Part shown: positions 14,417-28,837 of the stretch, one piece after another
Numbering within the stretch: the stretch's first letter is position 1
How the letters are laid out: each line of letters begins with the position of its first letter
Assembly (NCBI RefSeq): GCF_008000775.2
Contig: NZ_CP042905.2
Span: 210,001-242,000 of the forward strand
Length of the DNA stretch: 32,000 nt
Direction: 5' to 3'
Origin: Promethearchaeum syntrophicum
GTDB taxonomy: Archaea; Asgardarchaeota; Lokiarchaeia; Sigyniarchaeales; Promethearchaeaceae
The notes under the pieces: model-generated
Told to the model about the DNA's origin: nothing
The model's database searches: none
What the model saw: only the letters and a program-made list of their open reading frames with translations
Translations under genes and position numbers: made by a program

Positions 14417-15763
14417 TTAAATCTGCATTTTTTCAAGAGCTTTATTTCTTTCTTTAGTAAAACTCTTAATTTTTCCTGCATCTCCAGAAATTTCAGCAAG
14501 GTTAACCGATCTACTATAAAGATTGTAGGCTTCTTCATATTTGTGCTCTTTATACAATTTATCTCCTTCTATATTCACTTCTTTGGCTAAATTCAAGCAT
14601 GCTTTCTTATATTCTTCATTATATTTCTTTAAAAGGGTAGTATTATTTGCATTTTTGATAATTTCTACAGATTTTCTATAACTTTGTGCAGCTTTATCAA
14701 AATTTTTTTGTTTCATAGCGACATCCCCCACATTATTGACTTCTTTTGCCCATTTATCAATACTTTTCTCGAATTCAAGTTTAAAATTTTTGATGAGCTT
14801 TTTATTTTTGGATTCTTCTGCTAGTTCTACGGATTTAAAATATAATTCAGCAGCTTCTTCAAATTTCTTTGCTTTGAATAGTTTATCTCCTTGGTCATTT
14901 ATGCTTTGTGAATATTTTTCAAAGGATTTGTCCATTTCTTTTGTAAAATTATCAATCAATTTTTGATTTCCAGCATCTGTTGCAATATTAACACTTTGTG
15001 CGTATAGACTCGATGCTTTTTCAAAATTTTTTTGTTTCATATAATTATCGCCCATAGAATTTATTTTTTGAGCGTGATCTGAAAATGCTTTAAAGAGTTC
15101 TTTTTTAAATTCTTTCTTGAGTTTACTGTTATCAGATCTTTCGATTAGACGAACAGATTCAGTATATCGGTCAATGGCTTCTTCAAATTTCTTTTCTTTG
15201 TATAAAAGATCACCTTCTTTATTAACTTCTTGAGCCCACCTCTCGTATACAGTTAATTTTTTATGAATGAAGGATTTGCTCATTTTTTCGTCAACATCAA
15301 TTTTTACAATATCGCAAATTTCTTCATATTTTTTTCTTGCTTCTTTCCATTCACCTGATTTAACAAATTTTTCTGCTTCATCTTCAATTATTTGGGCATA
15401 GGCAATTTTAGATTTGTTTAGTTCTTTTAGGAATGACTTTCCAAGTTTCTTCATCCATTTTTCACCAGCATTTTGAAGAAAATCCCAAGCACTTTGATAA
15501 ACTTCTATAGCTTCTTGGTATTTTTTTTGTTTAAATAATTCATCTCCCTTTTTATTTAACTCTTCTGACCTTTTTCCAACTGCTTTATCAAGTTCTTGTT
15601 GATATTCATCAACTATCTTCATTTTCCCTACTGTTTTCATAAGATTAACCGATTCTACATATAGTTTGATCGCTTCTGTATAATTTTTTTTTTTATATAA
15701 TCGGTCGGCCATTTTGTTTACATTTTTTGCTTCCTTCTCGATTTCACTTACCATTTTTATCAC
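14417..15763 (-). CDS. TPR-like helical repeat protein (eight ~54-residue repeats)
   Basis: The unit recurs as A.EVN..GD.L[YF]K.KK[FY]EEA...Y..SV.L........L.K.F..E..K. The last five copies are spaced exactly 54 aa apart (residues 178, 232, 286, 340, 394). The start is either GTG 15763 or ATG 15754. Confidence 0.7.
   Translation of the reverse strand: MIKMVSEIEKEAKNVNKMADRLYKKKNYTEAIKLYVESVNLMKTVGKMKIVDEYQQELDKAVGKRSEELNKKGDELFKQKKYQEAIEVYQSAWDFLQNAGEKWMKKLGKSFLKELNKSKIAYAQIIEDEAEKFVKSGEWKEARKKYEEICDIVKIDVDEKMSKSFIHKKLTVYERWAQEVNKEGDLLYKEKKFEEAIDRYTESVRLIERSDNSKLKKEFKKELFKAFSDHAQKINSMGDNYMKQKNFEKASSLYAQSVNIATDAGNQKLIDNFTKEMDKSFEKYSQSINDQGDKLFKAKKFEEAAELYFKSVELAEESKNKKLIKNFKLEFEKSIDKWAKEVNNVGDVAMKQKNFDKAAQSYRKSVEIIKNANNTTLLKKYNEEYKKACLNLAKEVNIEGDKLYKEHKYEEAYNLYSRSVNLAEISGDAGKIKSFTKERNKALEKMQI
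14420..15736 (-). repeat. Intragenic tandem repeat, about 162 bp period (eight diverged copies)
   Basis: This is the DNA-level counterpart of the 54-aa protein repeat above. The copies are diverged, so periodicity is clearer in the protein than in the nucleotides. Confidence 0.6.
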
Positions 15764-15799: not shown

Positions 15800-17245
15800 T
15801 TGGGGGAAAAATATTTGTCCATAAAAAATGATCAAGATATAGAAATTGAAAAAATATTTGAAGGTGAATTAAAGAAATCTTTCTTTGAACGGGCCATATC
15901 TTCATTTTTGAAGAAACAATTTATTTCTGGATTGAAAATTCTTACAAGTCGGCCATATATATTCTTCTTTATTTATTCTGTCATAATTATTTTTGCCTCT
16001 ATAACTTTTGGAATTCTGTATGCTTTAAAGGTGCCATATCCTCTGGTTTTTTTTGAGAAAACATTATTAGTTGCATTATGCTCTGGATTGTCTTTAGTAA
16101 TTGGAGGTTTTCTTGGAGGACTGTCAAATTATCATTATTTCACAAATGTTCTTACAATACTATTATTTGTTTGTTCTTACATTATCGCTGTTTTCTTTGA
16201 TATTTCATTAGATTTTTTCCAATGGATAAAACTACTGTTCTTAATAGCATATGTGCTAATAGGTTCAATGACAATGTTTTTTATAATTGTTTCCTTTCAC
16301 ACATCCCTCTCTTATAGAATAATAACCTTAGGAAATTCTCCAAATCGTATGTTTTTTCAAGAACTCATCCGTTTTGGTGTTTGGATAACAATCCCTATGT
16401 ATATTTACATGTTTTTCCAAAGAAGTTTAGATTCCCAAATTTTATCAATTCTCGGAATAATCATTAATATTCTTTTACTCGTTCAAATGTATGGTGTTCC
16501 AAAAACAAAGAAAGGAGATCGGTTCGAAAATAAAGAAAATAATAAGGTGAAGATTAATTTCAAGCAAATTTTAGGATTTTATAATTTATATCTTATTTTT
16601 CATGCATCTCAATCATTCAATACAGGTGGTAAAATTACAAATTTAATATTAGAAATCTTAATTTTGGCACTTAATGCATTTTATATTATAAATAATTACT
16701 GTAAAAAAATTGAAAATATTGATGATTATGATGAAACAATGAAAAGATTATTTAGATTTCAAAGACCAAGCTCAAATTTAATGAAATTCAAAAAAAGAAT
16801 TGGTGATAAAGGAATGGTATTTATGGCGTTAGGTGTTGTGGTTGGTTATATTACAGTTTTAATGAATTCTTATCTAAATACACCAATGGTTTTACTTGGA
16901 AGTCTTGGAGCTGAAGATGTTCCCCTAAATGTTATTTATCACAGGATGTTTCTATACTTTGCCTTAATTTTGATTGTTCTGATGACTGTACTATTTAAAA
17001 AATCAACAATTTTCAGACTTAAATTAGTAAATAGATATTCCATAAGACATGCAATGAATATGTTTGCAGATATATTTCGAGTGTCTGAAGATGGGCATAC
17101 TGGAATAATATATGATGCTGTTGAAGTTAGTAAACAAAAAATTGAAGAACAAATAAATAAAGTTGGAAAAAAATTTAAGAATGGATGGAATAAATTCTTC
17201 TCTTTAGGTGGTACTGAAGAATCTGATGAAAACGCGAATGATTAA
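15800..17245 (+). CDS. Polytopic integral membrane protein, unknown function
   Basis: There are about ten hydrophobic helices (e.g. IFFFIYSVIIIFASITFGILYAL, LLFLIAYVLIGSMTMFFIIVSF). The N- and C-terminal tails are hydrophilic and the C-terminus is acidic. I recognise no family motif. The start is uncertain: TTG 15800 or TTG 15815, the latter preceded by GGGGG. Confidence 0.6.
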   Translation: MGEKYLSIKNDQDIEIEKIFEGELKKSFFERAISSFLKKQFISGLKILTSRPYIFFFIYSVIIIFASITFGILYALKVPYPLVFFEKTLLVALCSGLSLVIGGFLGGLSNYHYFTNVLTILLFVCSYIIAVFFDISLDFFQWIKLLFLIAYVLIGSMTMFFIIVSFHTSLSYRIITLGNSPNRMFFQELIRFGVWITIPMYIYMFFQRSLDSQILSILGIIINILLLVQMYGVPKTKKGDRFENKENNKVKINFKQILGFYNLYLIFHASQSFNTGGKITNLILEILILALNAFYIINNYCKKIENIDDYDETMKRLFRFQRPSSNLMKFKKRIGDKGMVFMALGVVVGYITVLMNSYLNTPMVLLGSLGAEDVPLNVIYHRMFLYFALILIVLMTVLFKKSTIFRLKLVNRYSIRHAMNMFADIFRVSEDGHTGIIYDAVEVSKQKIEEQINKVGKKFKNGWNKFFSLGGTEESDENAND

Positions 17246-18406: not shown

Positions 18407-18490
18407 GATTCTTTTGGGATTTATATGGTAGAATTTTAAGGTCCATATTTTTATTAATTATTTGTAGAGATTTCTTAGTGAAAATTAATT

Positions 18491-19645
18491 ATGAGCAATA
18501 AAATACCCTATGTAAATATTTTACAGTCTGCAATTTGTATTCCAGTTAGTGATGAAGTCCCAATTGCTTTGGACATAAAAATTTTACCAGATAAAAATAT
18601 ACCGGCAGAATCTTTCTTTGGAGTGTGGTTATTGGATGTTTCCGGATCCATGGGAGGAGACCGTTTAGAGAATGCAAAAGAATCATTGATAGAACAAATT
18701 GGAATTTTGCCTGATGGAACTATATTCAATTTAATTACTTTTGAAAGCAAAGTTAATGAGATTATTAAAGATGTTAAGATAACAAATAAAAGCAGACAGG
18801 AAATTATTAAAAAAATACAAGGAATCACAGAGAGAGGGACAACTTCTTTATATACAGCTTTAGAAAAGAGTCTTGAAATATTAAGGAAATATTCTCGGAC
18901 AAATGGCTCTCTTGCAATTAGGAAAATCATTTTAATTTCTGATGGGGAACCTACAGATGTACATGTTAGATCTGGTGAAGAAAACGATCCTAATTACCAA
19001 AAATATTTCATGCTGGCTAAAGAAGCTCTTGAATACAAATCTTCAATAGATACTGTTGGAGCACTTGGAGAACATAATGTATATTTAATGTATGAAATAG
19101 CAAAACTAAGTACTGGCAAATATATCTTCGCGGAAAATGAAGAAGAATTAAAAACTAAAATGATTATAGCGACTGAACAGACGGCAAGAATTGCTTTTAG
19201 TAGCCCAACACTAGCTGTAACAAGTATCACTGGTGATATTGAACTTGAAGATGCGGCTCAATATAAACCTACAGTAATTCGGATGCCTTTTGAAAAAATA
19301 AATAAAAGAGAATCGAAAGCGTATCTTAGAAGTTTTGAAGCAGGGGATACCTATCAGATTTTAGTAAAAGGAAAAATCTTCATAGATAAAAATAATATTC
19401 AAACCGAAACAAATGTGAAAGTATTGGAATTAGATTTTGATTTTGGTAAAGACGGATTAAGAGAAACAAAAGAAATATTTATTACTTTCTCCTCAGATTC
19501 ATCTAAATTTAAACTGAATCAAGATATCAACAGAAAATATGCAAATGTATTTTCACAAGCAGAAGAGATTGCAGATTGCACAATTAGAGGAGATGCTGCT
19601 GCAACACAAAAAATTCAAGGCGATGAAACAAAAAAAATTGATTAA
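18491..19645 (+). CDS. von Willebrand factor A (vWA) domain protein with intact MIDAS and a ~190-aa C-terminal domain
   Basis: The MIDAS residues are present: LLDVSGSMGG (DxSxS), GTTSLYTAL (Thr) and ILISDGEPTD (Asp). It is the first gene of the signalling cassette. Confidence 0.85.
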   Translation: MSNKIPYVNILQSAICIPVSDEVPIALDIKILPDKNIPAESFFGVWLLDVSGSMGGDRLENAKESLIEQIGILPDGTIFNLITFESKVNEIIKDVKITNKSRQEIIKKIQGITERGTTSLYTALEKSLEILRKYSRTNGSLAIRKIILISDGEPTDVHVRSGEENDPNYQKYFMLAKEALEYKSSIDTVGALGEHNVYLMYEIAKLSTGKYIFAENEEELKTKMIIATEQTARIAFSSPTLAVTSITGDIELEDAAQYKPTVIRMPFEKINKRESKAYLRSFEAGDTYQILVKGKIFIDKNNIQTETNVKVLELDFDFGKDGLRETKEIFITFSSDSSKFKLNQDINRKYANVFSQAEEIADCTIRGDAAATQKIQGDETKKID

Positions 19646-19717
19646 TAATATTTTTCAATGTATTACCCAAAATTTTTTAAGACGGAAAATTCACCATTTT
19701 AAACGAAAGTGAAAATT

Positions 19718-20467
19718 ATGACTGAATATCATTGCCCAAATTGTGGGTATAAAATTGGATTTGGGGAATCTATCTGCCCAAATTGTAAATCGGATGTTAC
19801 GAATGTATGGGAAGTTGCCCCTAAAAAAGAGGGCCCAAAAATTGCACCTGGAATGGGAGGATTGGAAAGTACTCCTTTTCCACCAGCTAGTAGTGATTCA
19901 CCTTTTCCTCCAGCGGAAAAAAAAGATAGCCCATTTCCACCTCCTGAAAACAAGGATTCTCCGTTTCCGCCTCCAGCCTCAAATATTGCTACACCTTTTC
20001 CACCTTCATCAGAATCTAGTCCTTTTCCCACCAGTCAAGAACCTTCTCCGTTCTCATCACCTTCTGGAGAAAGTAAGCCTTTTCCACCAATTTCAGGCAC
20101 ATCAAGTTCCCAAACAGAAGGATTGCATTTAGAAATCCCAAAAACTGGAGGAATTATTTTTATACCTGAAGGTGAATTGAGAATTGGACGTGATGAAATC
20201 CAAGGTGCAGCAAAAATTGCTTTACCTGATTTAAATGCCTACAAAAATATTTCGAGAAAAAGAGATAACAGTGAGCATTTTATAATTAGAAATCACAATG
20301 GAAATGTAAAGATTGAAGATCGCGGAAGTACAAATGGAACATATATAGGGTCAGAAAAAATTACGGGAACTGGTCCAAGAGATTTAAAAGATGGCGATAG
20401 TTTTATTTTACCAGTAGAAGAATTCGGTAAAATGGTTCAACTTGATCTCATATTCAGAGTTAAATAG
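19718..20467 (+). CDS. Zinc-ribbon + Pro-rich [ST]PFPP-repeat linker + canonical FHA domain protein
   Basis: The N-terminal zinc ribbon is CPNCGYKIGFGESICPNCK. Eight PF-containing repeats follow. The C-terminal FHA has LRIGRDE (GR), ISRKRDNSEHFII (S-R...H), DRGSTNGTYIG (NG) and LKDGDSFILP. The start is ATG 19718 or GTG 19709. Confidence 0.85.
   Translation: MTEYHCPNCGYKIGFGESICPNCKSDVTNVWEVAPKKEGPKIAPGMGGLESTPFPPASSDSPFPPAEKKDSPFPPPENKDSPFPPPASNIATPFPPSSESSPFPTSQEPSPFSSPSGESKPFPPISGTSSSQTEGLHLEIPKTGGIIFIPEGELRIGRDEIQGAAKIALPDLNAYKNISRKRDNSEHFIIRNHNGNVKIEDRGSTNGTYIGSEKITGTGPRDLKDGDSFILPVEEFGKMVQLDLIFRVK
19868..20092 (+). repeat. Degenerate tandem coding repeat ([ST]PFPP, 9-11 codon period, eight units)
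   Basis: The units are STPFPP, DSPFPP, DSPFPPP, DSPFPPP, ATPFPP, SSPFPT, PSPFSS and SKPFPP. The locally higher G+C creates shadow ORFs in two other frames. Confidence 0.8.
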
Positions 20468-20472
20468 AGAGA

Positions 20473-20490
20473 TTTTTTATTTTTTTTTTT
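20473..20490 (+). terminator. Long oligo-T tract (T6-A-T11) between cassette genes 2 and 3
   Basis: ttttttattttttttttt lies directly after the FHA gene stop. It is an archaeal-type termination or attenuation candidate. It could alternatively be part of a promoter for the next gene. Confidence 0.3.
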
Positions 20491-20510
20491 ATTAATTGGA
20501 ATAAATAAAA

Positions 20511-21815
20511 TTGGGGGCAAATAAAATAAGCGATTCGAATGTACCGTTCAAAATTAGGTGTTCATTTTGTGGAGATTTAAATGAATTTTTGAAAGATGAC
20601 TTATATGATGTAATAAATGGAAAAGAGCAGTTTCGAAAAAAATTTTGTTTAGAATGTGGTGAACCACTCGTATTAAACTGCCCTAATTGCAATCATAAAT
20701 TTCTATTGGGAATAAATTTCGAAAATAATCATTTTTTCAAAGTTCTTAATTCATTTTGGGATCCTACACCTTCTCTTCTAGATATTTTAATCCCAAATTC
20801 TCAAGAAACTTTGAAAATTTATAAAAATCTTGCTAATACATTAACTTCAGATTATTTTCGATTAAACCGAAAAGAATTCTTATCCAAAATGCCTGAAATA
20901 AAAGAAAAATTGGAAAATGTGAAGAAAATTTTAGAAAAATTTCAACCTTTTTTAAAAACTCAAGATTTAGATAAGAATTATAAAAGAGTGAATAAAGAAA
21001 TTTTATCAATTCTAAATGATATAACAAATATTTTAAATGATATTGAAGAAGGTAAAGGAAACGATATTCCTTTTTGGATAAATGAAAAAAGAGAGAAAAA
21101 ACTATTGAAACAAGTTCCTTTTCTGGATTTTTATAATATTATGGAAAATTTTATAGATTTAATTAAGCAAATTCGAGAAAATGAAATAAAATTAGAGCAG
21201 GAATCTTTAAAACCGGGTTTTAACAAAATTGAAAAATATGTAAAACAAGATCCTGAGTTTTATCGCGCAATTTGTCCTGTCTGCAATACAACAATATATC
21301 ATATTACTCATCAAGTATATATTCAAAATAAAATTGATAATAAATTGAAATTTATTGAAGAAATCTTTAAAGTTAATGAAGAAGAAGCAGAGAATTCAGA
21401 TACTCGAACGATACGATTTGATGTAAATGTAAATATCGAAAAATCTATAAAATTTTCTTTTCATGGTCAGCTAATTTTATTACTACATGAAAATACTCCA
21501 TATAAAATTGGAAGAGATCTGTTGAGGGATATTGATTATGAAGAAAAAGCTAGTCAAGAAATATTATTTGATGAGGATGACCCATTAGCTCGTGTTTCAA
21601 ATAGTCAGTTTACTTTAACTAAAAAAGGAAATAATATTATACTTGAAGGAATGAAATACGATGAAGGTCGCGTTGGGACATTTCTAAATACGCTAAATGA
21701 TGATATTAGGATAAAAGATCCTAACGGTATAGAAATTCAACCAGGATCAACAATTTTTATCCCATTAGTAAAAGAGAATAATAATTCTAATCAAATTAAA
21801 TTAATTTTATTGTAA
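20511..21815 (+). CDS. Multi-zinc-ribbon, coiled-coil protein with degenerate FHA-like C-terminus
   Basis: It carries CSFCGD...CLECGEPLVLNCPNCNH (three CxxC pairs), a Lys/Glu-rich central region, CPVCNTTIYH, and the C-terminal YKIGRDLL...ARVSNSQFTLTKKGNNIILEG. The start is TTG; there is no in-frame ATG before the first zinc ribbon. Confidence 0.7.
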   Translation: MGANKISDSNVPFKIRCSFCGDLNEFLKDDLYDVINGKEQFRKKFCLECGEPLVLNCPNCNHKFLLGINFENNHFFKVLNSFWDPTPSLLDILIPNSQETLKIYKNLANTLTSDYFRLNRKEFLSKMPEIKEKLENVKKILEKFQPFLKTQDLDKNYKRVNKEILSILNDITNILNDIEEGKGNDIPFWINEKREKKLLKQVPFLDFYNIMENFIDLIKQIRENEIKLEQESLKPGFNKIEKYVKQDPEFYRAICPVCNTTIYHITHQVYIQNKIDNKLKFIEEIFKVNEEEAENSDTRTIRFDVNVNIEKSIKFSFHGQLILLLHENTPYKIGRDLLRDIDYEEKASQEILFDEDDPLARVSNSQFTLTKKGNNIILEGMKYDEGRVGTFLNTLNDDIRIKDPNGIEIQPGSTIFIPLVKENNNSNQIKLILL

Positions 21816-21846
21816 ATTTTATAAATTATAAAGAAGAGGACTTTAA

Positions 21847-23388
21847 ATGACTGAAGAAAGCAAAACATTATATTTCTGTTCAGAATGCATGCATATTTAT
21901 TATAAAATACCCTCTAATAATCAATGTGCAATATGCCATAATGAAATGAATGTAGAAGATAGAATATTACCTTCCTCTTTGGATATCTTTACTTGTGAAA
22001 CTTGCCATACTCTTTACTCAACTCAGAATTTTGAGGATTTAATTCCAACAAACATAGAAAATAAAAATTTTTTGTGTGCGTGTAAGCATCATTGTCCTAC
22101 AAATGCATTATTACAAATTGGGAAAGAAGAAGCATATATAGGAAATATTGTAATTGCAGATATCTTTAATTGTTCTAATTGCGGAGCGATTTCTTATCGT
22201 AATCCAGATAATCAACAACGTAGTTGTGCTGAATGCGGTTCTCGATTTGTAATACCTTTAAATTGGGATCCAAAAACTCAAAAAACATTTTTTAGTTGTG
22301 CAAATAAACAAACTCATGGGATTCGTCTTAAAATAAGGGATCTTATCCTAAATAATAATAAAATAATATCTGAAGAAATAAAAAATATAAAAGTAAAAGA
22401 AAAACAATTGCAAAATCAGTATGAACAGCGAAGAGCGCGGATTATTACGAATTTTGGTAAAAAAAAAAAAAAACTTGAAAAAGAAATTAATTCTTTAAAC
22501 TTATGGGCAATCGAACAGCGTAGAGAAATGTATAATTACTTACGCCCAATTGGTCTACGTTGTACTGTATTTAAAATGGAAAAAGAAGAAAATAAAATAT
22601 TATATAAGAAAACGAATGATGGATGTGGAGCTTTAGCTCATTTAAAAATTAGAAAAATAATTCTTGCACCTGATGGTACAGTAATTGATAGAGCACCCCC
22701 TAAACCTGATGAACCAATTATAGAAGAAACTGAAACACCTAAAATAATGCATGTTGATCAACTAACCTTAGCACTGAAAAACACACCAATGGAACCACTC
22801 TCTAATAATTTATCTCAAACAAATTTATATGAGAAGCAAGATATTTTTAAAAAGATTACTAGTACTGACGATAAAGAAAATCAATTATTTAATTCATTAC
22901 CAATCTTAAAAGATGAGCAAATTTATATTAAAATTGGGCTCTATTCTTTAAAATATCTTTCAGATAAAGTAAAAAGGATTAATAGTGGAGTAATTCCAAT
23001 AAAAATAAAAAAAGATATTAATGAATTTAAAATCGGAAGAGAACAAATTATTCGTGCTTATTGGACTGATATTGAGTTGTTTAAAGAAAATCCTCTAATT
23101 TTTGATTCTCTAACTAAAGTATCTGAAAATTCAGATCAATTTCGCTTACAAAAAGATTCTGAAGGATTTTTTGTCTCTCCAGGAGAAAATCAAATAAATA
23201 AAATCTTTTATTCTTCTGATGATGAGAATTCAGATATCATTGAATTAACAACTCCCATGTCCTTAAACATGATTAAGGCTTTGTATTTTTATACATATTA
23301 CTCTTTTGATAAAGAAAATGTTGGAATGGATCATCAATTTATTTTTAAATTATCTATAGCCCTTCCAGAATCAAGTTTAACAACTTAA
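21847..23388 (+). CDS. Multi-zinc-ribbon, coiled-coil protein with degenerate FHA-like C-terminus
   Basis: It carries CSECMH...CAICH, CETCH...CACKHHC and CSNCGA...CAECGSRF, then a Lys-rich coiled-coil-like segment. The C-terminus has FKIGREQII...KVSENSDQFRLQKDSEGFFVSPG. A good RBS (gaggac) lies before the ATG. Confidence 0.7.
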   Translation: MTEESKTLYFCSECMHIYYKIPSNNQCAICHNEMNVEDRILPSSLDIFTCETCHTLYSTQNFEDLIPTNIENKNFLCACKHHCPTNALLQIGKEEAYIGNIVIADIFNCSNCGAISYRNPDNQQRSCAECGSRFVIPLNWDPKTQKTFFSCANKQTHGIRLKIRDLILNNNKIISEEIKNIKVKEKQLQNQYEQRRARIITNFGKKKKKLEKEINSLNLWAIEQRREMYNYLRPIGLRCTVFKMEKEENKILYKKTNDGCGALAHLKIRKIILAPDGTVIDRAPPKPDEPIIEETETPKIMHVDQLTLALKNTPMEPLSNNLSQTNLYEKQDIFKKITSTDDKENQLFNSLPILKDEQIYIKIGLYSLKYLSDKVKRINSGVIPIKIKKDINEFKIGREQIIRAYWTDIELFKENPLIFDSLTKVSENSDQFRLQKDSEGFFVSPGENQINKIFYSSDDENSDIIELTTPMSLNMIKALYFYTYYSFDKENVGMDHQFIFKLSIALPESSLTT

Positions 23389-23409
23389 GATTCAAACTGG
23401 TGAAAAATT

Positions 23410-24285
23410 ATGAGTGATGATGAAAACAAAAAAATAAAAATTTGTAGAAACTGCCATTCCATTTATAAAAAATTATCACAAAAATATTGCGGAAATAATT
23501 GCCAAAATGAACATCCATTCTTAATTGATGGAAAAATCAATCAAAATATTGAAACTCGCGAATTAATTTTATCAATAAATGAAAAAGGGATAATTAGATG
23601 GATATGTATGGGCTGTCATAAGGAATATTCTTCAGATAATATCAATGGAAAAGATTTTGTTTGTAGTTGTGGTTTAAAAAATCAACTTTATCCTTTCACA
23701 ATGAAAAGTTGTGCGAATCCTGGTTGTAAAAATGACGATAATACATATCATAATCTACCAATTGATGGAAAAGCTTGTGAAATTTGCGGGGAAACAAAAT
23801 TTCAATTAAATGGCAATAAATTGATTTCTAGTTTCCTATATTATGATGAAAAAAAAATAGAAACCCCAGAATCTTTCAAATTCAATATTAAACATCATGA
23901 TGAAGATAAGTCGAAAAATCTACCTTCTTTAACATTTACCATACTAAATAATAATCTTGAATATATTTTGTATGGTGAAAATAAATCAATTACTATGAAA
24001 GATATAATTAAAGACTCAATGGGATTTATTCCTGATAATATTTATGAGAAATTACTAGAAAAATATACAGATGAGAAAGAAATTTTCAATATCTCATATA
24101 ATGATGAAACTGAAGAATTTTCTTTAAAAAGTCTTTTAGAGTTTTCTGTTAGTGAACTAGATCCAAGATATCAACCGAAAAACATAGTAGGAACCTGGAT
24201 TTCAGGAAGTGAAAATGTTATTCCAGAAAATATTTTATTTGAATTGAATACAGATTTTTTTAAAATTCACATATGGGCATATTAA
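23410..24285 (+). CDS. Multi-zinc-ribbon protein (no recognisable FHA)
   Basis: It carries CRNCHS...CGNNCQNEH, CMGCHK...CSCGLKN and CANPGCKN...CEICGETKF. The C-terminal half is acidic and lacks a GR motif. A ggtga RBS lies before the ATG. Confidence 0.65.
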   Translation: MSDDENKKIKICRNCHSIYKKLSQKYCGNNCQNEHPFLIDGKINQNIETRELILSINEKGIIRWICMGCHKEYSSDNINGKDFVCSCGLKNQLYPFTMKSCANPGCKNDDNTYHNLPIDGKACEICGETKFQLNGNKLISSFLYYDEKKIETPESFKFNIKHHDEDKSKNLPSLTFTILNNNLEYILYGENKSITMKDIIKDSMGFIPDNIYEKLLEKYTDEKEIFNISYNDETEEFSLKSLLEFSVSELDPRYQPKNIVGTWISGSENVIPENILFELNTDFFKIHIWAY

Positions 24286-24298
24286 GGAGAAGATAAGA

Positions 24299-25630
24299 AT
24301 GTCGACATTAAAACCTAAAGACAAATTACAATTGAAAAACAAGTATGAAATTATTGAAGTTATTGGTGACGGAGGATTTGGAACAGTTTTTTCTGCCAAA
24401 AATACAAAAAATGGAGAATTAGTAGCAGTAAAACAGTTTAAACGCGAGGCTTTTTCTTCTACAGCAGAATGTCGAATGTATTGGGAACGTGAAGTCAAAT
24501 TAACTGAAGCAGTTACTGGTTATCCCGGAAAGCATATGGGTTTAATTGATTCAAAAGAAGATAAATCTGATCGCAGCAATCCAAAATTCTATATTGTATT
24601 AAATTTCGTAAAAGGTATTACTTTAAAATCATGGTTTAATGATAATTTGCGTTCGGCTAAGCCATTGGGAGTAGATGAAATTATCAAAAAAATATTCCTA
24701 CCTTTATGTGACTACATGGATTTTGCACACAGAAGAGGTGGGATTCATAGGGATTTTACATTCAATAATATTTTAATTGTAACTGATCAGATGACGCAAG
24801 ACATTTACCCAATTACTATCGATTGGGGAGGAGGAAGAAGTTTCGATCCTTCAACACTTGAAAAAGAAGCCCCTTTAATTGATGAAATGGAGGGCTCTGG
24901 AACAGTTATTATAACACCTGGTTTTTTTGCTCCCGAAATAATTATGCAAAAACCTCCTTTACCACAAACAGACATATATATGTATGGGGCAGTTTTATTT
25001 TATGCGTTAACAAATGGATACACGCGTGTTAAACCTACAATCTCATCTGATTATATTTTACACCCACAAGATTACAATATGAATGTTAGTGATACATTAA
25101 ATGATGTTGTTGAGAAATGTACGGAATATGAACCGAAAGACAGATTTCGAACATTTGCCGACATTAAAACTTCATTAGAACAGCATCTCTCAGGAGAAAT
25201 CGGAGGATTAGATAGATTACCCTCTATTGAAACGGGAAACTCTTTTATTCTAAGAATTGCAAATAATAATGCAATAATTCAATTGAATCCTTTAGAGATA
25301 GCTTTAGAAGATGGCAAAAATCTTCGAATTGGTCGTGAGTTAATGATTGAATCTGCAGCTTGGAAAGAAAGCTATAAAGGAGTATTTAGAGGAATCACTC
25401 GATGTAAAATTAATGATGAAGATCGCCCACGCGAACAATTTTTTATAGGATATAGTAAGAAACAGAATATTTTTTATATTCATGAGGGGCGAAATTCAAA
25501 TCCAACATCATTAAACGGAGAAAGATTGCCTCCAAATCAATGGGTTCCTCTTCAAGCAAACGCCCAAGTATCAGTTTCAAGTACAACGGTAAGAGGATCG
25601 TTTGAATTAATCTCTGTATTAGATTTATAG
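24299..25630 (+). CDS. Hanks-type Ser/Thr protein kinase fused to a C-terminal FHA-like domain
   Basis: The Gly-loop is IGDGGFGTVF, the catalytic Lys is in VAVKQF and the catalytic loop is IHRDFTFNNILI. DWGG stands at the DFG position, and FFAPEII, DIYMYGAVLFYAL and KDRFRTF follow. The C-terminus has LRIGRELM...REQFFIGY...NPTSLNGERL. A strong RBS (aaggag) lies upstream. Confidence 0.85.
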   Translation: MSTLKPKDKLQLKNKYEIIEVIGDGGFGTVFSAKNTKNGELVAVKQFKREAFSSTAECRMYWEREVKLTEAVTGYPGKHMGLIDSKEDKSDRSNPKFYIVLNFVKGITLKSWFNDNLRSAKPLGVDEIIKKIFLPLCDYMDFAHRRGGIHRDFTFNNILIVTDQMTQDIYPITIDWGGGRSFDPSTLEKEAPLIDEMEGSGTVIITPGFFAPEIIMQKPPLPQTDIYMYGAVLFYALTNGYTRVKPTISSDYILHPQDYNMNVSDTLNDVVEKCTEYEPKDRFRTFADIKTSLEQHLSGEIGGLDRLPSIETGNSFILRIANNNAIIQLNPLEIALEDGKNLRIGRELMIESAAWKESYKGVFRGITRCKINDEDRPREQFFIGYSKKQNIFYIHEGRNSNPTSLNGERLPPNQWVPLQANAQVSVSSTTVRGSFELISVLDL

Positions 25631-25639
25631 ATAATATGT

Positions 25640-26488
25640 TTGGTAATGAAAATGAAAAAAAATCAATTGGATTATGGAATTATTTGTGATGTTGGTGGAA
25701 AAAGAAAAGGTAATCAAGATAGTTTGTTTTTCTCAGAATTTGATTTAATTATTGCACCAGGATCTCCTGATTCAAAACAATTCTCATATAAATCAATATT
25801 AGCAATTATCTGTGATGGGGTATCGAGTAGTTTAAAGGGAGAGAAAGGGAGTAATTTTGTAATTCGACATTTAGCAGCTAAAATTATTGGCGATCTTTAT
25901 ATTCATAATTTTTCCATCAGTGAAGAATTAAATAAAATCCAAGAATTCATAAATCAAACGAATTTTGAATTAATAAACGAATTCAAAGATCTGAAAAACA
26001 CACCCCAAACAACTCTAGCAGGATTTCTAGTTATTGGTCAATGGTTATGGTTGTTTAATTTAGGTGATAGTCGAATTTTTATTGTGAAAGATGGAGAAAT
26101 TAATCAAATATCCGTTGATCATATTGGTACGAGCGCGTCACATGAAATAACTCAATCAATGGGACTTAGTGAAATCAAACCTGAGTTAAAAATCTTTAAT
26201 TGGGCTTACCAAACAAAAAATGATGAAAAAAAGATTTCCTACACAGAAAAATACTATATTCTTGCTTGTTCAGACGGTTTAACCGATAGAGTCACGAACA
26301 GCGAGATTAATGAAATACTTAATGACCAGTCAAAAAATGAAGGAATCCAAGAAAAGGTAGAGATTCTTTATAATTTATCAATGACACGTGGTAATGATGA
26401 TAATATTTCAATCATTGCTGTTGATCTATCTAAGTATTTCGACTCAATTTCTATAATACAAAAAATTAAACTTCAATACGAGGGATAA
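25640..26488 (+). CDS. PP2C (PPM) family Ser/Thr phosphatase
   Basis: The PPM motifs are GKRKGNQDS, ICDGVSSS, NLGDSRIF, CSDGLTD and DDNISIIAV. Start candidates are TTG 25640 or ATG 25646/25652. Confidence 0.85.
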   Translation: MVMKMKKNQLDYGIICDVGGKRKGNQDSLFFSEFDLIIAPGSPDSKQFSYKSILAIICDGVSSSLKGEKGSNFVIRHLAAKIIGDLYIHNFSISEELNKIQEFINQTNFELINEFKDLKNTPQTTLAGFLVIGQWLWLFNLGDSRIFIVKDGEINQISVDHIGTSASHEITQSMGLSEIKPELKIFNWAYQTKNDEKKISYTEKYYILACSDGLTDRVTNSEINEILNDQSKNEGIQEKVEILYNLSMTRGNDDNISIIAVDLSKYFDSISIIQKIKLQYEG

Positions 26489-26491
26489 ATA

Positions 26492-27613
26492 TTGATATCA
26501 GAACATAATGAGGAACCAATGTTGGAATTCTTTGATTTAGGAGATTCAACTCAATTTAAAAAAATCGATCTTGAAATAGTTCAAGAAATTGAAGAGAATT
26601 CCCGTTCTATTAGCCCGATTATTTTTGAAATATTTGAAAAATTAATGAAACAATGTTTAAAAGGATACAATTTTACAGATGAGCAAATTTCCTTTGTTGA
26701 ATATTTGGAATTTTATCAAGAGGTAAATAGATTAATACCAGAACTAAAAAAAAAGATAATTACTGAAGATTGTTACAGTAGCGTTTTTTATATTGGGGAT
26801 ACTCATGGAGCCATTCAGGAAAGTTTTAAGATTGTAGATTTTTTCTATAAATTATTTCAAACTAATAAGCAGATAAAAATAATCTTTGTAGGAGACTATG
26901 TAGATCGTAATCCTTACGATCTTGAAAATCTGACCCTGATCACGTCATTTCATCTTTTATTTCCAAAAAATGTCTTTCTTATTAGAGGAAATCATGAAGA
27001 TCGTTTAATTAATACTCATTATGGCTTCATAGATAATTTATTAAGAGCTTTTAGAGAAAAAGGGGAAGAATTATATGAAGAAATAATCAAATATTTTACT
27101 CATCTTCCTCTTGTTCATATTGCTCAGATGCATTCAGGAGATAAATTAGCACGAGTTATGGCAGTTCATGGCGGGATTCCAATAGATCCGTTAAATTTCC
27201 TTGAACCCGCAATTTTGGAAGACATCGAGCCTAAATTGAAATGTGAGGTAGATAAGAGTGATAAAATGGATGTTTATTCAGTAAGTATGCTTTGGTCAGA
27301 TCCTGATGATATGATTCAAGGCATATTAACTGGAGCCCATTTACATGGTAGAATGAGATTTGGATTTCCAGTATTTAAGAGTTTCATTCATGCGAATAAT
27401 ATTCAGTTAGTCGTTCGAGGTCATCAAAAATGGAATAATGGGCATCATATATTCTTTGGGGGGCAATTATATAGTCTATTTTCTACACAAACTTATGACG
27501 GTAAAATAAAATTTGAACCGAAAATACTCAGACTAGATTTCGGTCAAACTCCAAAAATTATTCCAATTGATTTTGAATCCTTAGAAAAAGAATTAATATC
27601 AAATACAAATTAA
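26492..27613 (+). CDS. PPP-family (PP1/PP2A-like) Ser/Thr phosphatase, paralogue 1
   Basis: The PPP motifs are GDTHG, GDYVDRN, RGNHE, VHGGIP, LWSDPDD and VRGHQ. An extension of about 100 aa precedes the catalytic core. The start is TTG 26492 or ATG 26519. Confidence 0.85.
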   Translation: MISEHNEEPMLEFFDLGDSTQFKKIDLEIVQEIEENSRSISPIIFEIFEKLMKQCLKGYNFTDEQISFVEYLEFYQEVNRLIPELKKKIITEDCYSSVFYIGDTHGAIQESFKIVDFFYKLFQTNKQIKIIFVGDYVDRNPYDLENLTLITSFHLLFPKNVFLIRGNHEDRLINTHYGFIDNLLRAFREKGEELYEEIIKYFTHLPLVHIAQMHSGDKLARVMAVHGGIPIDPLNFLEPAILEDIEPKLKCEVDKSDKMDVYSVSMLWSDPDDMIQGILTGAHLHGRMRFGFPVFKSFIHANNIQLVVRGHQKWNNGHHIFFGGQLYSLFSTQTYDGKIKFEPKILRLDFGQTPKIIPIDFESLEKELISNTN

Positions 27614-27622
27614 AAAATATGG

Positions 27623-28837
27623 GTGAATACAATAGTTCCAAATGAATTTGAAGAAGAAAACGAATTTAATGAAAAAACTAGGATAATTGGAGAGCAATCA
27701 TATCAAACACTAAAACCTACTCTTAGTAAAATTATTGAAACACAAACGCAAATGATTTTTGATGGAAAAACTCAGCGATTAGGAGAAACAAAGGAATCTA
27801 CAATCATAGATGAGTTTTGGTCATATTACTCACAATTTTCTTCTGAAAATTTACCATCAGAAGAAATGTATTATGGGAATGAATTTGCAGAATTAAAAAT
27901 AACAATTCTGATACGGATGTTTCAAGATTTCTATTTAGAACGTATTTATCCAATAAGTTTTCCTGTTCCCATCATTCATACATCCTATAGATCATCTAAA
28001 AATAAGAGTAAAAATCCTGCAAAAATGTTCTTTGTAGGTGATACTCATGGATCTTTTTTTGATACAATAAAATTAATTCCATTTTTTGTTAAAGAGATCC
28101 ACAAAGGCGAAGAAAAAGGATATGAAGTAAAAATAGTTTTTATTGGTGATTTTGTAGATCGGGGAAAATTAGATATTCATAATCTTCTTTATATATTAAC
28201 TTTCAACTTAAAATATCAAAAAAATGTGCTTTTACTCCGAGGCAATCATGAGGAGATATCAATAAACGCACATTACGGTTTTGGCACTAGAGTGATGAAA
28301 CATTTTTCACAGCTTCTTTTTGCTTCTTTTAATCATATGTTCAAGGATTTACCATTAATAGCAATTTTCCATTGTAATGAAGGAGGTATTATGTGTTTAC
28401 ATGGAGGAATACCAATAGTTCCTAATATATCTACAGGAGGCTATGAAGTACCCCAATTGAATACATTCCAATTTAATAATCGTCAAGTTTGGATTGATGA
28501 AATGGATGAGGTAACTCAACAGATTTTATGGAATGATCCAATTAGAAATTATGATCCTAATTCTCCGCAAAAATATTTTAAAAGTCGAAGAGGTATAGGA
28601 TTTGTATTTAATCATGAAATTTTTAATGAATTTTGTGTTAAAAATCATGTAAATCTATTATTTAGAGGTCATCAAGTATTTTTAGAAGGTTTTCATAAGC
28701 ATTTTGATAATCGATTTATAACTATTTTTTCAGCGACAAATTACGTAAAAAAGAAAATTGATGCAAGATTTATAGAGTTAGATTCGGGAGATATTTACAA
28801 TTTTAAAGTTCACAGAATTCAAAATTTATCCTCCTAA
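27623..28837 (+). CDS. PPP-family (PP1/PP2A-like) Ser/Thr phosphatase, paralogue 2
   Basis: The PPP motifs are GDTHG, GDFVDRG, RGNHE, LHGGIP, LWNDPIRN and FRGHQ. An N-terminal extension of about 135 aa precedes the core. The start is GTG. Confidence 0.85.
   Translation: MNTIVPNEFEEENEFNEKTRIIGEQSYQTLKPTLSKIIETQTQMIFDGKTQRLGETKESTIIDEFWSYYSQFSSENLPSEEMYYGNEFAELKITILIRMFQDFYLERIYPISFPVPIIHTSYRSSKNKSKNPAKMFFVGDTHGSFFDTIKLIPFFVKEIHKGEEKGYEVKIVFIGDFVDRGKLDIHNLLYILTFNLKYQKNVLLLRGNHEEISINAHYGFGTRVMKHFSQLLFASFNHMFKDLPLIAIFHCNEGGIMCLHGGIPIVPNISTGGYEVPQLNTFQFNNRQVWIDEMDEVTQQILWNDPIRNYDPNSPQKYFKSRRGIGFVFNHEIFNEFCVKNHVNLLFRGHQVFLEGFHKHFDNRFITIFSATNYVKKKIDARFIELDSGDIYNFKVHRIQNLSS

Follow-up and report, generated by a model that had tools for sequence, protein, structure and literature searches.

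A nine-gene block of the Asgard archaeon Promethearchaeum syntrophicum as a probable self-contained phosphothreonine switch of the ArnA/ArnB type

We have analyzed a window of 32,000 nucleotides from Promethearchaeum syntrophicum MK-D1 (contig NZ_CP042905.2, positions 210,001 to 242,000), in which nine consecutive genes, called here g1 to g9 (18491-28837, + strand), encode a vWA protein, a zinc-ribbon protein with an FHA domain, three further multi-zinc-ribbon proteins, a Hanks-type Ser/Thr kinase and three protein phosphatases. By analogy with the Sulfolobus proteins ArnA and ArnB, we propose that this block constitutes a self-contained phosphothreonine switch of the Promethearchaeota, a reading to which we give a probability of roughly 0.6. 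The block looks like a variant of the known ArnA/ArnB signalling module with the presumed writer and erasers in cis, and not a new kind of system. The phospho-switch mechanism has been shown experimentally for ArnA, ArnB, ArnC and PP2A of Sulfolobus (PMC6509490, PMC7472852, PMC12852372). Three lines of evidence are developed below: the architecture of g1 and g2, the signalling enzymes that accompany them, and the conservation of the gene order.

Organization of the nine-gene block

The products of g1, g3 and g6 are identical to QEE14929.1, DSAG12_00753 (QEE14931.1) and QEE14934.1 of P. syntrophicum MK-D1, which NCBI classes in the phylum Promethearchaeota of the Asgard kingdom. An initial annotation of this DNA had described nine co-directional genes with 3-63 bp between them, and this is borne out both by the open reading frames (ORFs), whose intergenic gaps measure 63, 43, 31, 21, 13, 9, 3 and 9 bp, and by a second, independent gene caller run on the identical contig, which places the starts of g2, g7 and g8 slightly later. 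The flanking housekeeping genes (AAA_18 kinase-like, TGT, DUF371, Trm5) are likewise co-directional and tightly spaced, with 84 bp upstream of g1 and 21 bp to the downstream TGT gene, and spacing alone therefore cannot set the limits of the block.

The 84-bp gap upstream of g1 (18407..18490, + strand) is likely its promoter region. According to the gene calls, the gap at this position is the widest of the run in every locus (84-151 bp), and an alignment of the upstream DNA reveals an A/T-rich element, TTTATTAATTA, about 40 nt upstream of the g1 ATG, which is kept among close relatives only. A scan for promoters and terminators of bacterial type returned 75 sites for 84 expected, a type of scan that is uninformative for an archaeon, and it gave no evidence marking the limits of the block. 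GC content is uniform and the block shows no island features, and the remainder of the window is made of ordinary metabolism, transport and tRNA modification genes. Profile searches of the nine products found no helix-turn-helix, nuclease, protease, transporter or MoxR domain, in line with the absence of an output domain pointed out in the initial annotation.

g1 resembles the scaffold ArnB

g1 (18491..19645, + strand) encodes a protein of 384 residues composed of a vWA domain (residues 43-232), a beta-sandwich (234-333) and a C-terminal helical hairpin followed by a tail (344-384). It matches the Pfam family VWA_2 (E 3e-13), and its metal ion-dependent adhesion site (MIDAS, DxSxS...T...D), formed by D49, S51, S53, T118 and D151, is invariant in 45 homologues, so that the intact MIDAS reported at the outset stands. 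These residues line up with the LLDTSGSM, GGQT and LTDG segments of ArnB. Searched as a single sequence, g1 finds ArnB (8S05 chain A) as its best PDB match (9e-15); with a profile of the 45 family sequences, ArnB is again the top PDB match (E 1.6e-21), over the vWA part alone, followed by ITIH1 (7e-10) and by the ArnB paralogue vWA2 (5A8J, 1.2e-8). The PDB entry 8S05 corresponds to ArnB from S. acidocaldarius crystallized with the zinc finger of ArnA (PMC12852372).

The AlphaFold2 model of g1 was obtained with a predicted local distance difference test score (pLDDT) of 92 and a predicted template modelling (TM) score of 0.89, and it contains a helical hairpin at residues 344-376. When this model was submitted to Foldseek, it could be superimposed on ArnB (8S05_A) over its full length (6e-22, TM 0.66/0.67, 386 columns, 21% identity). 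Full-length matches were also obtained with 4FX5 (4e-22) and with vWA2 (5A8J, 1e-16), while Sec24 and Sec23 scored below the ArnB-type matches (TMq 0.53-0.59). By its modelled tripartite architecture of vWA domain, beta-sandwich and helical region, g1 is an ArnB-type protein.

The C-terminal tail of g1 is where the likeness would bear on phosphorylation. Three threonines, T364, T372 and T380, are conserved in 45/45, 44/45 and 45/45 family sequences, respectively, beside a GDETKK motif. The position three residues after the phosphothreonine is the main specificity determinant of FHA domains, and aliphatic residues at positions 375 and 383 give T372 and T380 two T-x-x-(I/L/V) motifs. We thus regard T364, T372 and T380 as candidate phosphosites, which would parallel the ArnB threonines T353-T375; the latter are phosphorylated sequentially by ArnC, after which the FHA domain of ArnA binds tightly (PMC12852372).

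g2 has the build of ArnA

g2 (19709..20467, + strand), which adjoins g1, encodes a protein with a four-cysteine zinc ribbon at its N-terminus and a canonical FHA domain at its C-terminus, connected by a linker that contains seven (S/T)PFPP motifs; orthologs of g2 suggest a start at the ATG at 19718. Pfam recognizes the FHA domain (E 2.9e-10) and gives weak zinc-ribbon matches, in agreement with the zinc ribbon, Pro-rich linker and canonical FHA domain of the initial description. The FHA domain carries residues of the phosphothreonine-binding type (GR...SxxH...STNGT), and the four cysteines of the zinc ribbon are invariant. In a profile search of the PDB, g2 matched the FHA1 domain of Rad53 (1.4e-4), and ArnA (5A8I, 8S05_C) came at E 0.12 over 30 residues. 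g2 has the build of ArnA (zinc ribbon, linker, FHA) and not an ArnA-specific sequence.

Six or seven (S/T)PFPP motifs are found in the linker (window 19850-20130) of every ortholog. They are mostly Ser-Pro, and Thr-Pro dipeptides number from 0 to 7 per ortholog at positions that are not conserved, which makes the linker a poorer candidate than the g1 tail for being read by FHA domains. As a tandem-repeat search of the linker found no repeat at the DNA level, we treat the PFPP array as a feature of the protein. In its sequence, (S/T)PFPP is reminiscent of the proline-rich motifs that act as ligands.

One kinase and three phosphatases lie in the same block

g6 (24299..25630, + strand) encodes a Hanks-type Ser/Thr kinase (residues 16-300; Pfam Pkinase, E 4e-25) extended by a divergent FHA-like C-terminus (residues ~330-443). 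The motifs GDGGFG, VA(V/I)K, HRDFTFNN (residues 150-157, 24746-24769), DWG (residues 175-177, 24821-24829) and APE are invariant across its orthologs. The active site is atypical, yet strictly conserved, and we assume from its sequence that g6 is an active kinase.

The three phosphatases, one PP2C and two PPP enzymes as initially read, are supported by Pfam matches as well as by conserved catalytic motifs. g7 (25640..26488, + strand) belongs to the PP2C/PPM family (PP2C_2, E 5e-9), matches the NCBIfam model Stp1/IreP (E 3.5e-29, below the equivalog cut-off) and keeps the motifs NQD, DGVS, GDSR, SDG and DN. g8 (26492..27613, + strand; Metallophos, E 1e-16) is a PPP phosphatase with invariant GDTHG, GDYVDRN, GNHE, HGG and RGH motifs, the second of which is a variant form. 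g9 (27623..28837, + strand; Metallophos, E 3e-22) is a eukaryote-like PPP phosphatase with conserved GDTHG, GDFVDRG, GNHE, HGG, RGH and FSATNY motifs, and its closest PDB matches are the eukaryotic PP1, PP5 and PP2A, at ~1e-29 to 1e-26. From these motifs, g7, g8 and g9 all look catalytically active. N-terminal extensions of ~95 residues in g8 (26492-26780) and ~130 residues in g9 (27623-28020) are without a match to any family and could serve in docking or regulation.

g3, g4 and g5 and the search for further FHA domains

The three remaining products are zinc-ribbon proteins, in which every CxxC knuckle is 100% conserved among orthologs. In g3 (20511..21815, + strand, 434 residues), three CxxC knuckles at the N-terminus are followed by a helical insert of ~150 residues, then by a fourth CxxC and by a C-terminal domain with an FHA fold (~300-434). 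g4 (21847..23388, + strand, 513 residues) contains at least three zinc ribbons, and its C-terminal ~150 residues are possibly a degenerate, unproven FHA domain. g5 (23410..24285, + strand, 291 residues) contains three zinc ribbons and a C-terminal domain without a GR motif. None of the three proteins matched a Pfam family above threshold, and Pfam searches with the C-terminal pieces of all their orthologs were also empty. Homologues of g3 form 14 clusters, in which all the named ones come from Promethearchaeota.

The initial annotation had attributed FHA-like ends to two of these three proteins and to the kinase, and had counted up to four phosphothreonine readers. For g3, this is supported by the structure model. 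The mean pLDDT is 69.7 and reaches ~80 over the C-terminal 135 residues, and FHA domains account for 15/19 of the top Foldseek matches in the PDB, including FhaA, APLF, OdhI and GarA (top FHA entries 3PO8, 2LC1, 5E50 and 4QCJ). These matches have a probability of at least 0.95, a target TM of 0.47-0.61 and E-values of 6e-3 to 7e-2, which are modest because the query was the full-length protein. An alignment of the g3 C-terminus displays conserved GR, S-x-x-Q and R-x-G-T motifs. For the kinase g6, the FHA-like end is partly supported: Pfam FHA matches 6/8 orthologs with a best E of 2.9e-4, below the gathering score, and hhalign aligns this region with the g2 FHA domain over 78 columns (E 0.005).

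For g4, weak colinear hhalign matches to g2, g3 and g6 surround a partly conserved IGRE strand, from which a degenerate FHA domain is possible but not demonstrated. The g5 C-terminus gave no FHA signal in Pfam, hhalign or searches with a hidden Markov model (HMM) of the g2 FHA domain, and hhalign aligned no more than 16 columns between g5 and g6. Profiles of the C-termini of g3 and g6, when searched against PDB sequences, returned chance matches only, and hhalign comparisons among the C-terminal domains, colinear at 1-13% probability, are too weak to call g4 or g5. When the g2-FHA HMM was run against the 1,396 ORFs of all fetched loci, the top 30 ORFs other than g2 included 8 g3, 7 g6, 4 g4 (out of 11 g4 orthologs) and 0 g5, where ~0.8 would be expected by chance; since the orthologs are not mutually independent, this enrichment is supportive and is not a proper probability. 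Altogether, support is found for three readers (g2, g3 and g6) in place of four.

Some further features of these proteins can be mentioned. In g3, the third and fourth CxxC knuckles (residues 52-55 and 250-253) are separated by the helical insert (89-241), which is confidently modelled and has weak Foldseek matches to four-helix bundles of FAT domains; one zinc ribbon may be split around this helical module. GenBank holds g3 (DSAG12_00753) both as 434 and as 408 residues (window 20511-20590). As the shorter start would drop the first, 100% conserved CxxC, the longer TTG-initiated form looks correct. Lastly, a short conserved beta-strand motif, ILNNN, is common to g5 (23935-23985) and g6 (25240-25290). 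It lies just upstream of the start of the FHA core in g6, and no GR motif follows it in g5.

The gene order is kept across at least three genera

Conservation of the gene order had been set as a test at the outset. Using HMMs built from orthologs to read the order in related loci, we found that it runs intact from g1 to g9 in every locus long enough to show it, that is ~10 loci (the window, L002, L004-L006, L008, L009, L011, L012 and L040) covering at least three genera: Promethearchaeum, Lokiarchaeum (L008, the complete genome of Candidatus Lokiarchaeum ossiferum) and Candidatus Harpocratesius (L040). Truncated contigs match the same order as far as they extend. The order holds even where g3-g5 have diverged to 33-45% identity. 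In orthologous loci, neighbouring genes often overlap or lie 1-4 bp apart. Several loci lack the flanking genes u1, u3 and u5 or have other genes in their place, which is never the case for the nine genes.

Compared with the window protein, orthologs are 66-74% identical for g1 and g6, as high as for the housekeeping TGT gene, 49-64% for g2 and g7-g9, and 33-49% for g3-g5, which are lineage-specific and, by this comparison of sequences, fast-evolving. The block appears to be single-copy and vertically inherited at a fixed housekeeping locus, and it behaves as a core-genome locus.

Comparison with Sulfolobus and a proposed mechanism

In Sulfolobus, the zinc finger of ArnA contacts unphosphorylated ArnB at its beta-sandwich and C-terminal domain (PMC12852372). 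PP2A, a phosphatase of the PPP family, removes the phosphates from ArnB and causes the complexes to dissociate (PMC7472852), so that the combination with eukaryote-like PPP phosphatases, not recognized in the initial annotation, has a known counterpart. The arnA and arnB genes form an operon that is never located within pilus or archaellum loci, and the kinases and the phosphatase of this archaellum regulatory network are encoded elsewhere (PMC4858521).

The two systems have in common a scaffold made of vWA domain, beta-sandwich and helical hairpin with a threonine cluster near its C-terminus, and an adjoining partner in which a linker joins an N-terminal zinc ribbon to a C-terminal FHA domain. 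Both include a Hanks kinase (ArnC/ArnD in Sulfolobus) and a eukaryote-like PPP phosphatase (PP2A in Sulfolobus), which here would likewise be writer and eraser, and no protein of either system has a DNA-binding domain. In contrast to the dispersed Sulfolobus genes, the presumed writer and three erasers are here encoded within the same block, which also includes an additional PP2C, a second PPP and three further multi-zinc-ribbon proteins, at least one with an FHA fold. Whereas ArnC has an N-terminus of OB and TPR domains, g6 carries its own FHA-like tail.

On this basis, one could imagine the following cycle. In the basal state, the zinc ribbons would dock loosely on the beta-sandwich and C-terminal region of g1. 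The writer g6 would then phosphorylate the g1 tail on T364, T372 and T380, and the phosphorylated tail would be bound tightly by the FHA domain of g2, the primary reader, and probably also by those of g3 and g6. This binding would change the oligomeric state and expose the zinc ribbons or the MIDAS to downstream partners, with g3, g4 and g5 serving as possible adaptors. The PP2C g7 and the PPP enzymes g8 and g9 would be the erasers that reset the system. By analogy we infer the pairing of kinase and substrate, the pairing of FHA domains and sites, and the co-transcription of the block. The general logic of the phosphothreonine-gated assembly switch imagined in the initial annotation thus fits, as in ArnAB. 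That annotation was right in spirit; it missed the Sulfolobus ArnA/ArnB comparator and misplaced the likely phosphosites, which it had put in Thr-Pro sites of the g2 linker.

Several observations weigh against this proposal. Identity between g1 and ArnB is no higher than 21%, with a sequence similarity limited to the vWA part, and the bacterial protein 4FX5 fits the g1 model as well as ArnB does. g2 has the sequence of a generic FHA protein without specific similarity to ArnA (E 0.12), and the gene order is reversed with respect to arnA-arnB, the ArnB-like gene being here the first one. In all orthologs of g6, the catalytic-loop lysine is replaced by a threonine (HRDFTFNN) and DFG by DWG, which is why kinase activity has to be assumed. 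The FHA-like domains of g3 and g6 are without the canonical Ser/His and Asn-Gly residues, making phosphothreonine binding by both uncertain, and the roles given to g4 and g5 are guesses. In the loci where the gene order is intact, the flanks are largely syntenic too, and the conservation of the order therefore reflects relatedness in part. Finally, the output of the Sulfolobus system, archaellum genes, gives no guidance to the output here.

Alternative explanations

One could wonder whether the kinase marks the (S/T)P sites of the g2 linker, with the FHA modules reading there and the MIDAS of g1 merely tethering an outside partner. The constancy of the PFPP array in every g2 ortholog and the invariance of the MIDAS speak for it, as does the phosphorylation of ArnA itself in Sulfolobus (PMC7472852). 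Yet the motifs are mostly Ser-Pro, their Thr-Pro dipeptides vary in number and position, and it is the g1 tail that holds invariant threonines followed by an aliphatic +3 residue, a placement that matches the mapped ArnB sites. FHA domains bind phosphothreonine and not phosphoserine. We consider this arrangement unlikely. A reading that we find similarly improbable is that the block is not one functional unit and that separate signalling genes are held together by regional synteny in a single archaeal clade. The co-directional, tightly spaced and syntenic flanking genes (AAA_18 kinase-like, TGT, DUF371 and Trm5) are in its favor. On the other hand, u1, u3 and u5 come and go when the nine genes never do, and the vWA, zinc-ribbon-FHA, FHA-tailed kinase and PP2C proteins recur in unrelated contexts, in the loci L039 and L041 described below. 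The complementary logic of the domains (a writer, readers, erasers and a substrate-like scaffold) also argues for a unit.

Another hypothesis comes from the structural relatives of g1: the block could ensure the phospho-regulated assembly of a Sec23/24-core-like scaffold for membrane or cytoskeleton remodelling in Asgard cells, in which the zinc-ribbon proteins would take the place, in trans, of the zinc finger of Sec23/24, and the PFPP repeats would act as a proline-motif ligand. A trunk (vWA), a beta-sandwich and a helical arrangement are common to g1 and to Sec23/Sec24 of the COPII inner coat; the g1 model aligns to both proteins, and g1 has several dispersed paralogues. The depositors of 8S05 entitled their entry 'an archaeal ortholog of the Sec23/24 core motif', and the corresponding paper draws the parallel between vWA, beta-sandwich, helical and zinc-finger parts (PMC12852372). 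However, ArnB-type proteins fit g1 far better than Sec23/24 do, and g1 lacks a Cys-rich zinc finger in cis as well as a gelsolin domain. The Sec23-like proteins described from Asgard archaea have their zinc finger in cis and Sec23 as top match (PMC11914678), and g1 is therefore not a member of that family. Moreover, there is no GTPase, coat or membrane protein in the block and no Sar1/Arf partner nearby, and a similar cassette exists in a non-Loki archaeon (L041). This remodelling scenario appears very unlikely to us. A broader version of it, that the cassette would be the control centre of Loki-only Sec23/24-core-like scaffolds (g1 and its paralogues) coupling phosphothreonine signalling to cytoskeletal or membrane remodelling, seems to us about as unlikely. 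Within it, each of g2-g5 would have its own scaffold or state as partner, and the (S/T)PFPP array would recruit profilin or an SH3-like binder.

An anti-virus or conflict system, comparable to the defence cassettes that multicellular bacteria build around vWA proteins or kinases, could be evoked for the rapidly diverging g3-g5 (33-49% identity, vs 66-74% for g1 and g6). In addition, PADLOC matches the g6 kinase to defence-kinase profiles including PD-T4-6 and mad6, and a conflict neighbourhood of actinobacteria associates a kinase, a PP2C and a standalone vWA protein (PMC7159879). Nevertheless, PADLOC matches the generic kinase domain and none of the other eight proteins, no nuclease, protease, pore or NTPase effector and no MoxR was found, and the block is single-copy and apparently vertical at its fixed housekeeping locus, with a uniform GC content and no island features. 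Given this generic match and the core-genome context, we rejected the defence reading, whose chances we hold to be extremely slim.

Other phosphorylation modules and vWA systems

The 'ternary' conflict systems are defined by a MoxR AAA+ protein, a vWA protein and a VMAP (or iSTAND/FtsH) component (Kaur et al. 2020, PMC7159879). As in these vWA-MoxR-VMAP systems, a vWA protein is central here to a conserved multi-gene neighbourhood. In contrast to them, the block has no effector domains and behaves as a core-genome locus. Membership was rejected, as neither MoxR AAA+ nor VMAP was found in the block or in the rest of the window, and the likeness to 'ternary' cassettes drawn in the initial annotation does not hold.

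A bacterial parallel is offered by DRA0331-DRA0334 of Deinococcus radiodurans, an operon-like cluster that likewise combines genes for a Hanks kinase and a PP2C with those for a vWA protein and a stand-alone FHA protein, and that has been interpreted as a self-contained phosphorylation control unit by the authors of a preprint (10.64898/2026.01.23.701218). That cluster differs in being bacterial, in its transmembrane kinase and its PP2C with KI-FHA, and in the absence of zinc-ribbon proteins and PPP phosphatases.

Two other groups of bacterial modules, Fha1/PpkA/PppA of the type VI secretion system (T6SS) and FhaA/FhaB-PstP-PknB of mycobacteria, also build a writer, reader and eraser logic from a Hanks kinase, FHA proteins and a PP2C. 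To our knowledge, neither includes a vWA or ArnB-type scaffold. Their outputs, T6SS assembly and cell-wall growth, are defined and encoded nearby; profile searches found no output genes of either kind in the nine genes or in the window.

Paralogues of g1 and related cassettes

Scans of genomes and metagenomes with back-translated g1 and g6 patterns were very specific and returned close relatives and some unrelated kinases only. For the wider distribution, we searched exhaustively with HMMER, which brought up intermediates, and then looked at gene contexts. The g1 family forms a clade of its own, sharply delimited to Promethearchaeota; in a word-indexed search, scores fall from E 1e-91 straight to 1e-16. 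It includes tiers of paralogues at ~55-59% and 40-49% identity. Solitary paralogues, among unrelated genes, are found in L013 (1006-2157), in L015 (8001-9176, NEF87_002262 of L. ossiferum), in L036 (1452-2564 and 7917-9062) and in L037 (7001-8158). With 36-59% identity, they retain the invariant MIDAS and the C-terminal T...T...GDETKK tail, and no kinase, FHA or phosphatase gene was found near them in these four loci. Given that the tail motif is retained in these paralogues, they may also be served in trans by the kinase and readers of the block.

A reduced cassette is present in L039 (8825-15875), a metagenome-assembled genome of Promethearchaeota with 50% GC, vs 30% here. It encodes in order two g1-like vWA proteins, a 213-residue protein in which two zinc ribbons accompany an FHA domain, a g6-like kinase, a PP2C and a further, second kinase, and has neither g3-g5 nor PPP genes. 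The g6-like kinase aligns across the FHA-like tail (hmm 4-430 of 443) and has a zinc ribbon between the catalytic domain and this tail; in the second kinase, zinc ribbons are inserted within the kinase domain. A differently decorated cassette lies in L041 (3628-13110), an archaeal contig with 38% GC and a PGF-CTERM neighbour. Its order is a zinc-ribbon transglutaminase-core protein, a 421-residue vWA protein with a Thr-rich tail, two zinc-ribbon-FHA proteins of ~145 residues, PrsW-FHA-FHA, DUF4234-FHA, a kinase with a weak FHA match, a DUF4350/CARDB membrane protein and a PP2C.

Judged by their predicted domains, an ArnB-like vWA protein, a zinc-ribbon-FHA protein, a kinase and a PP2C make up a recurrent archaeal cassette, to which g3-g5 and the two PPP genes have been added specifically in the Promethearchaeum/Lokiarchaeum/Harpocratesius group. 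L039 and L041 suggest that this cassette is widespread and uncatalogued. In the searchable literature, queried with locus tags and with Asgard, FHA and vWA, no prior description of the nine-gene block was found. If our proposal is true, this would be the first ArnA/ArnB-type switch with its kinase and all its phosphatases encoded alongside, and it would carry over to the lineage nearest to eukaryotes a module that has been studied in Sulfolobales alone. It would also provide a defined set of nine proteins for in vitro reconstitution, as well as a natural setting in which to examine how one scaffold is shared by several FHA readers and by phosphatases of two superfamilies. The block occurs in two cultivable Asgard archaea, P. 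syntrophicum MK-D1 and L. ossiferum.

Upstream neighbours

Two genes of the window located upstream of the block are conserved neighbours in most loci. The first (14417-15763, - strand) encodes a 448-residue TPR protein with an MIT-like N-terminus, and the second (15800-17245, + strand) a multi-pass membrane protein of 481 residues that belongs to no Pfam family.

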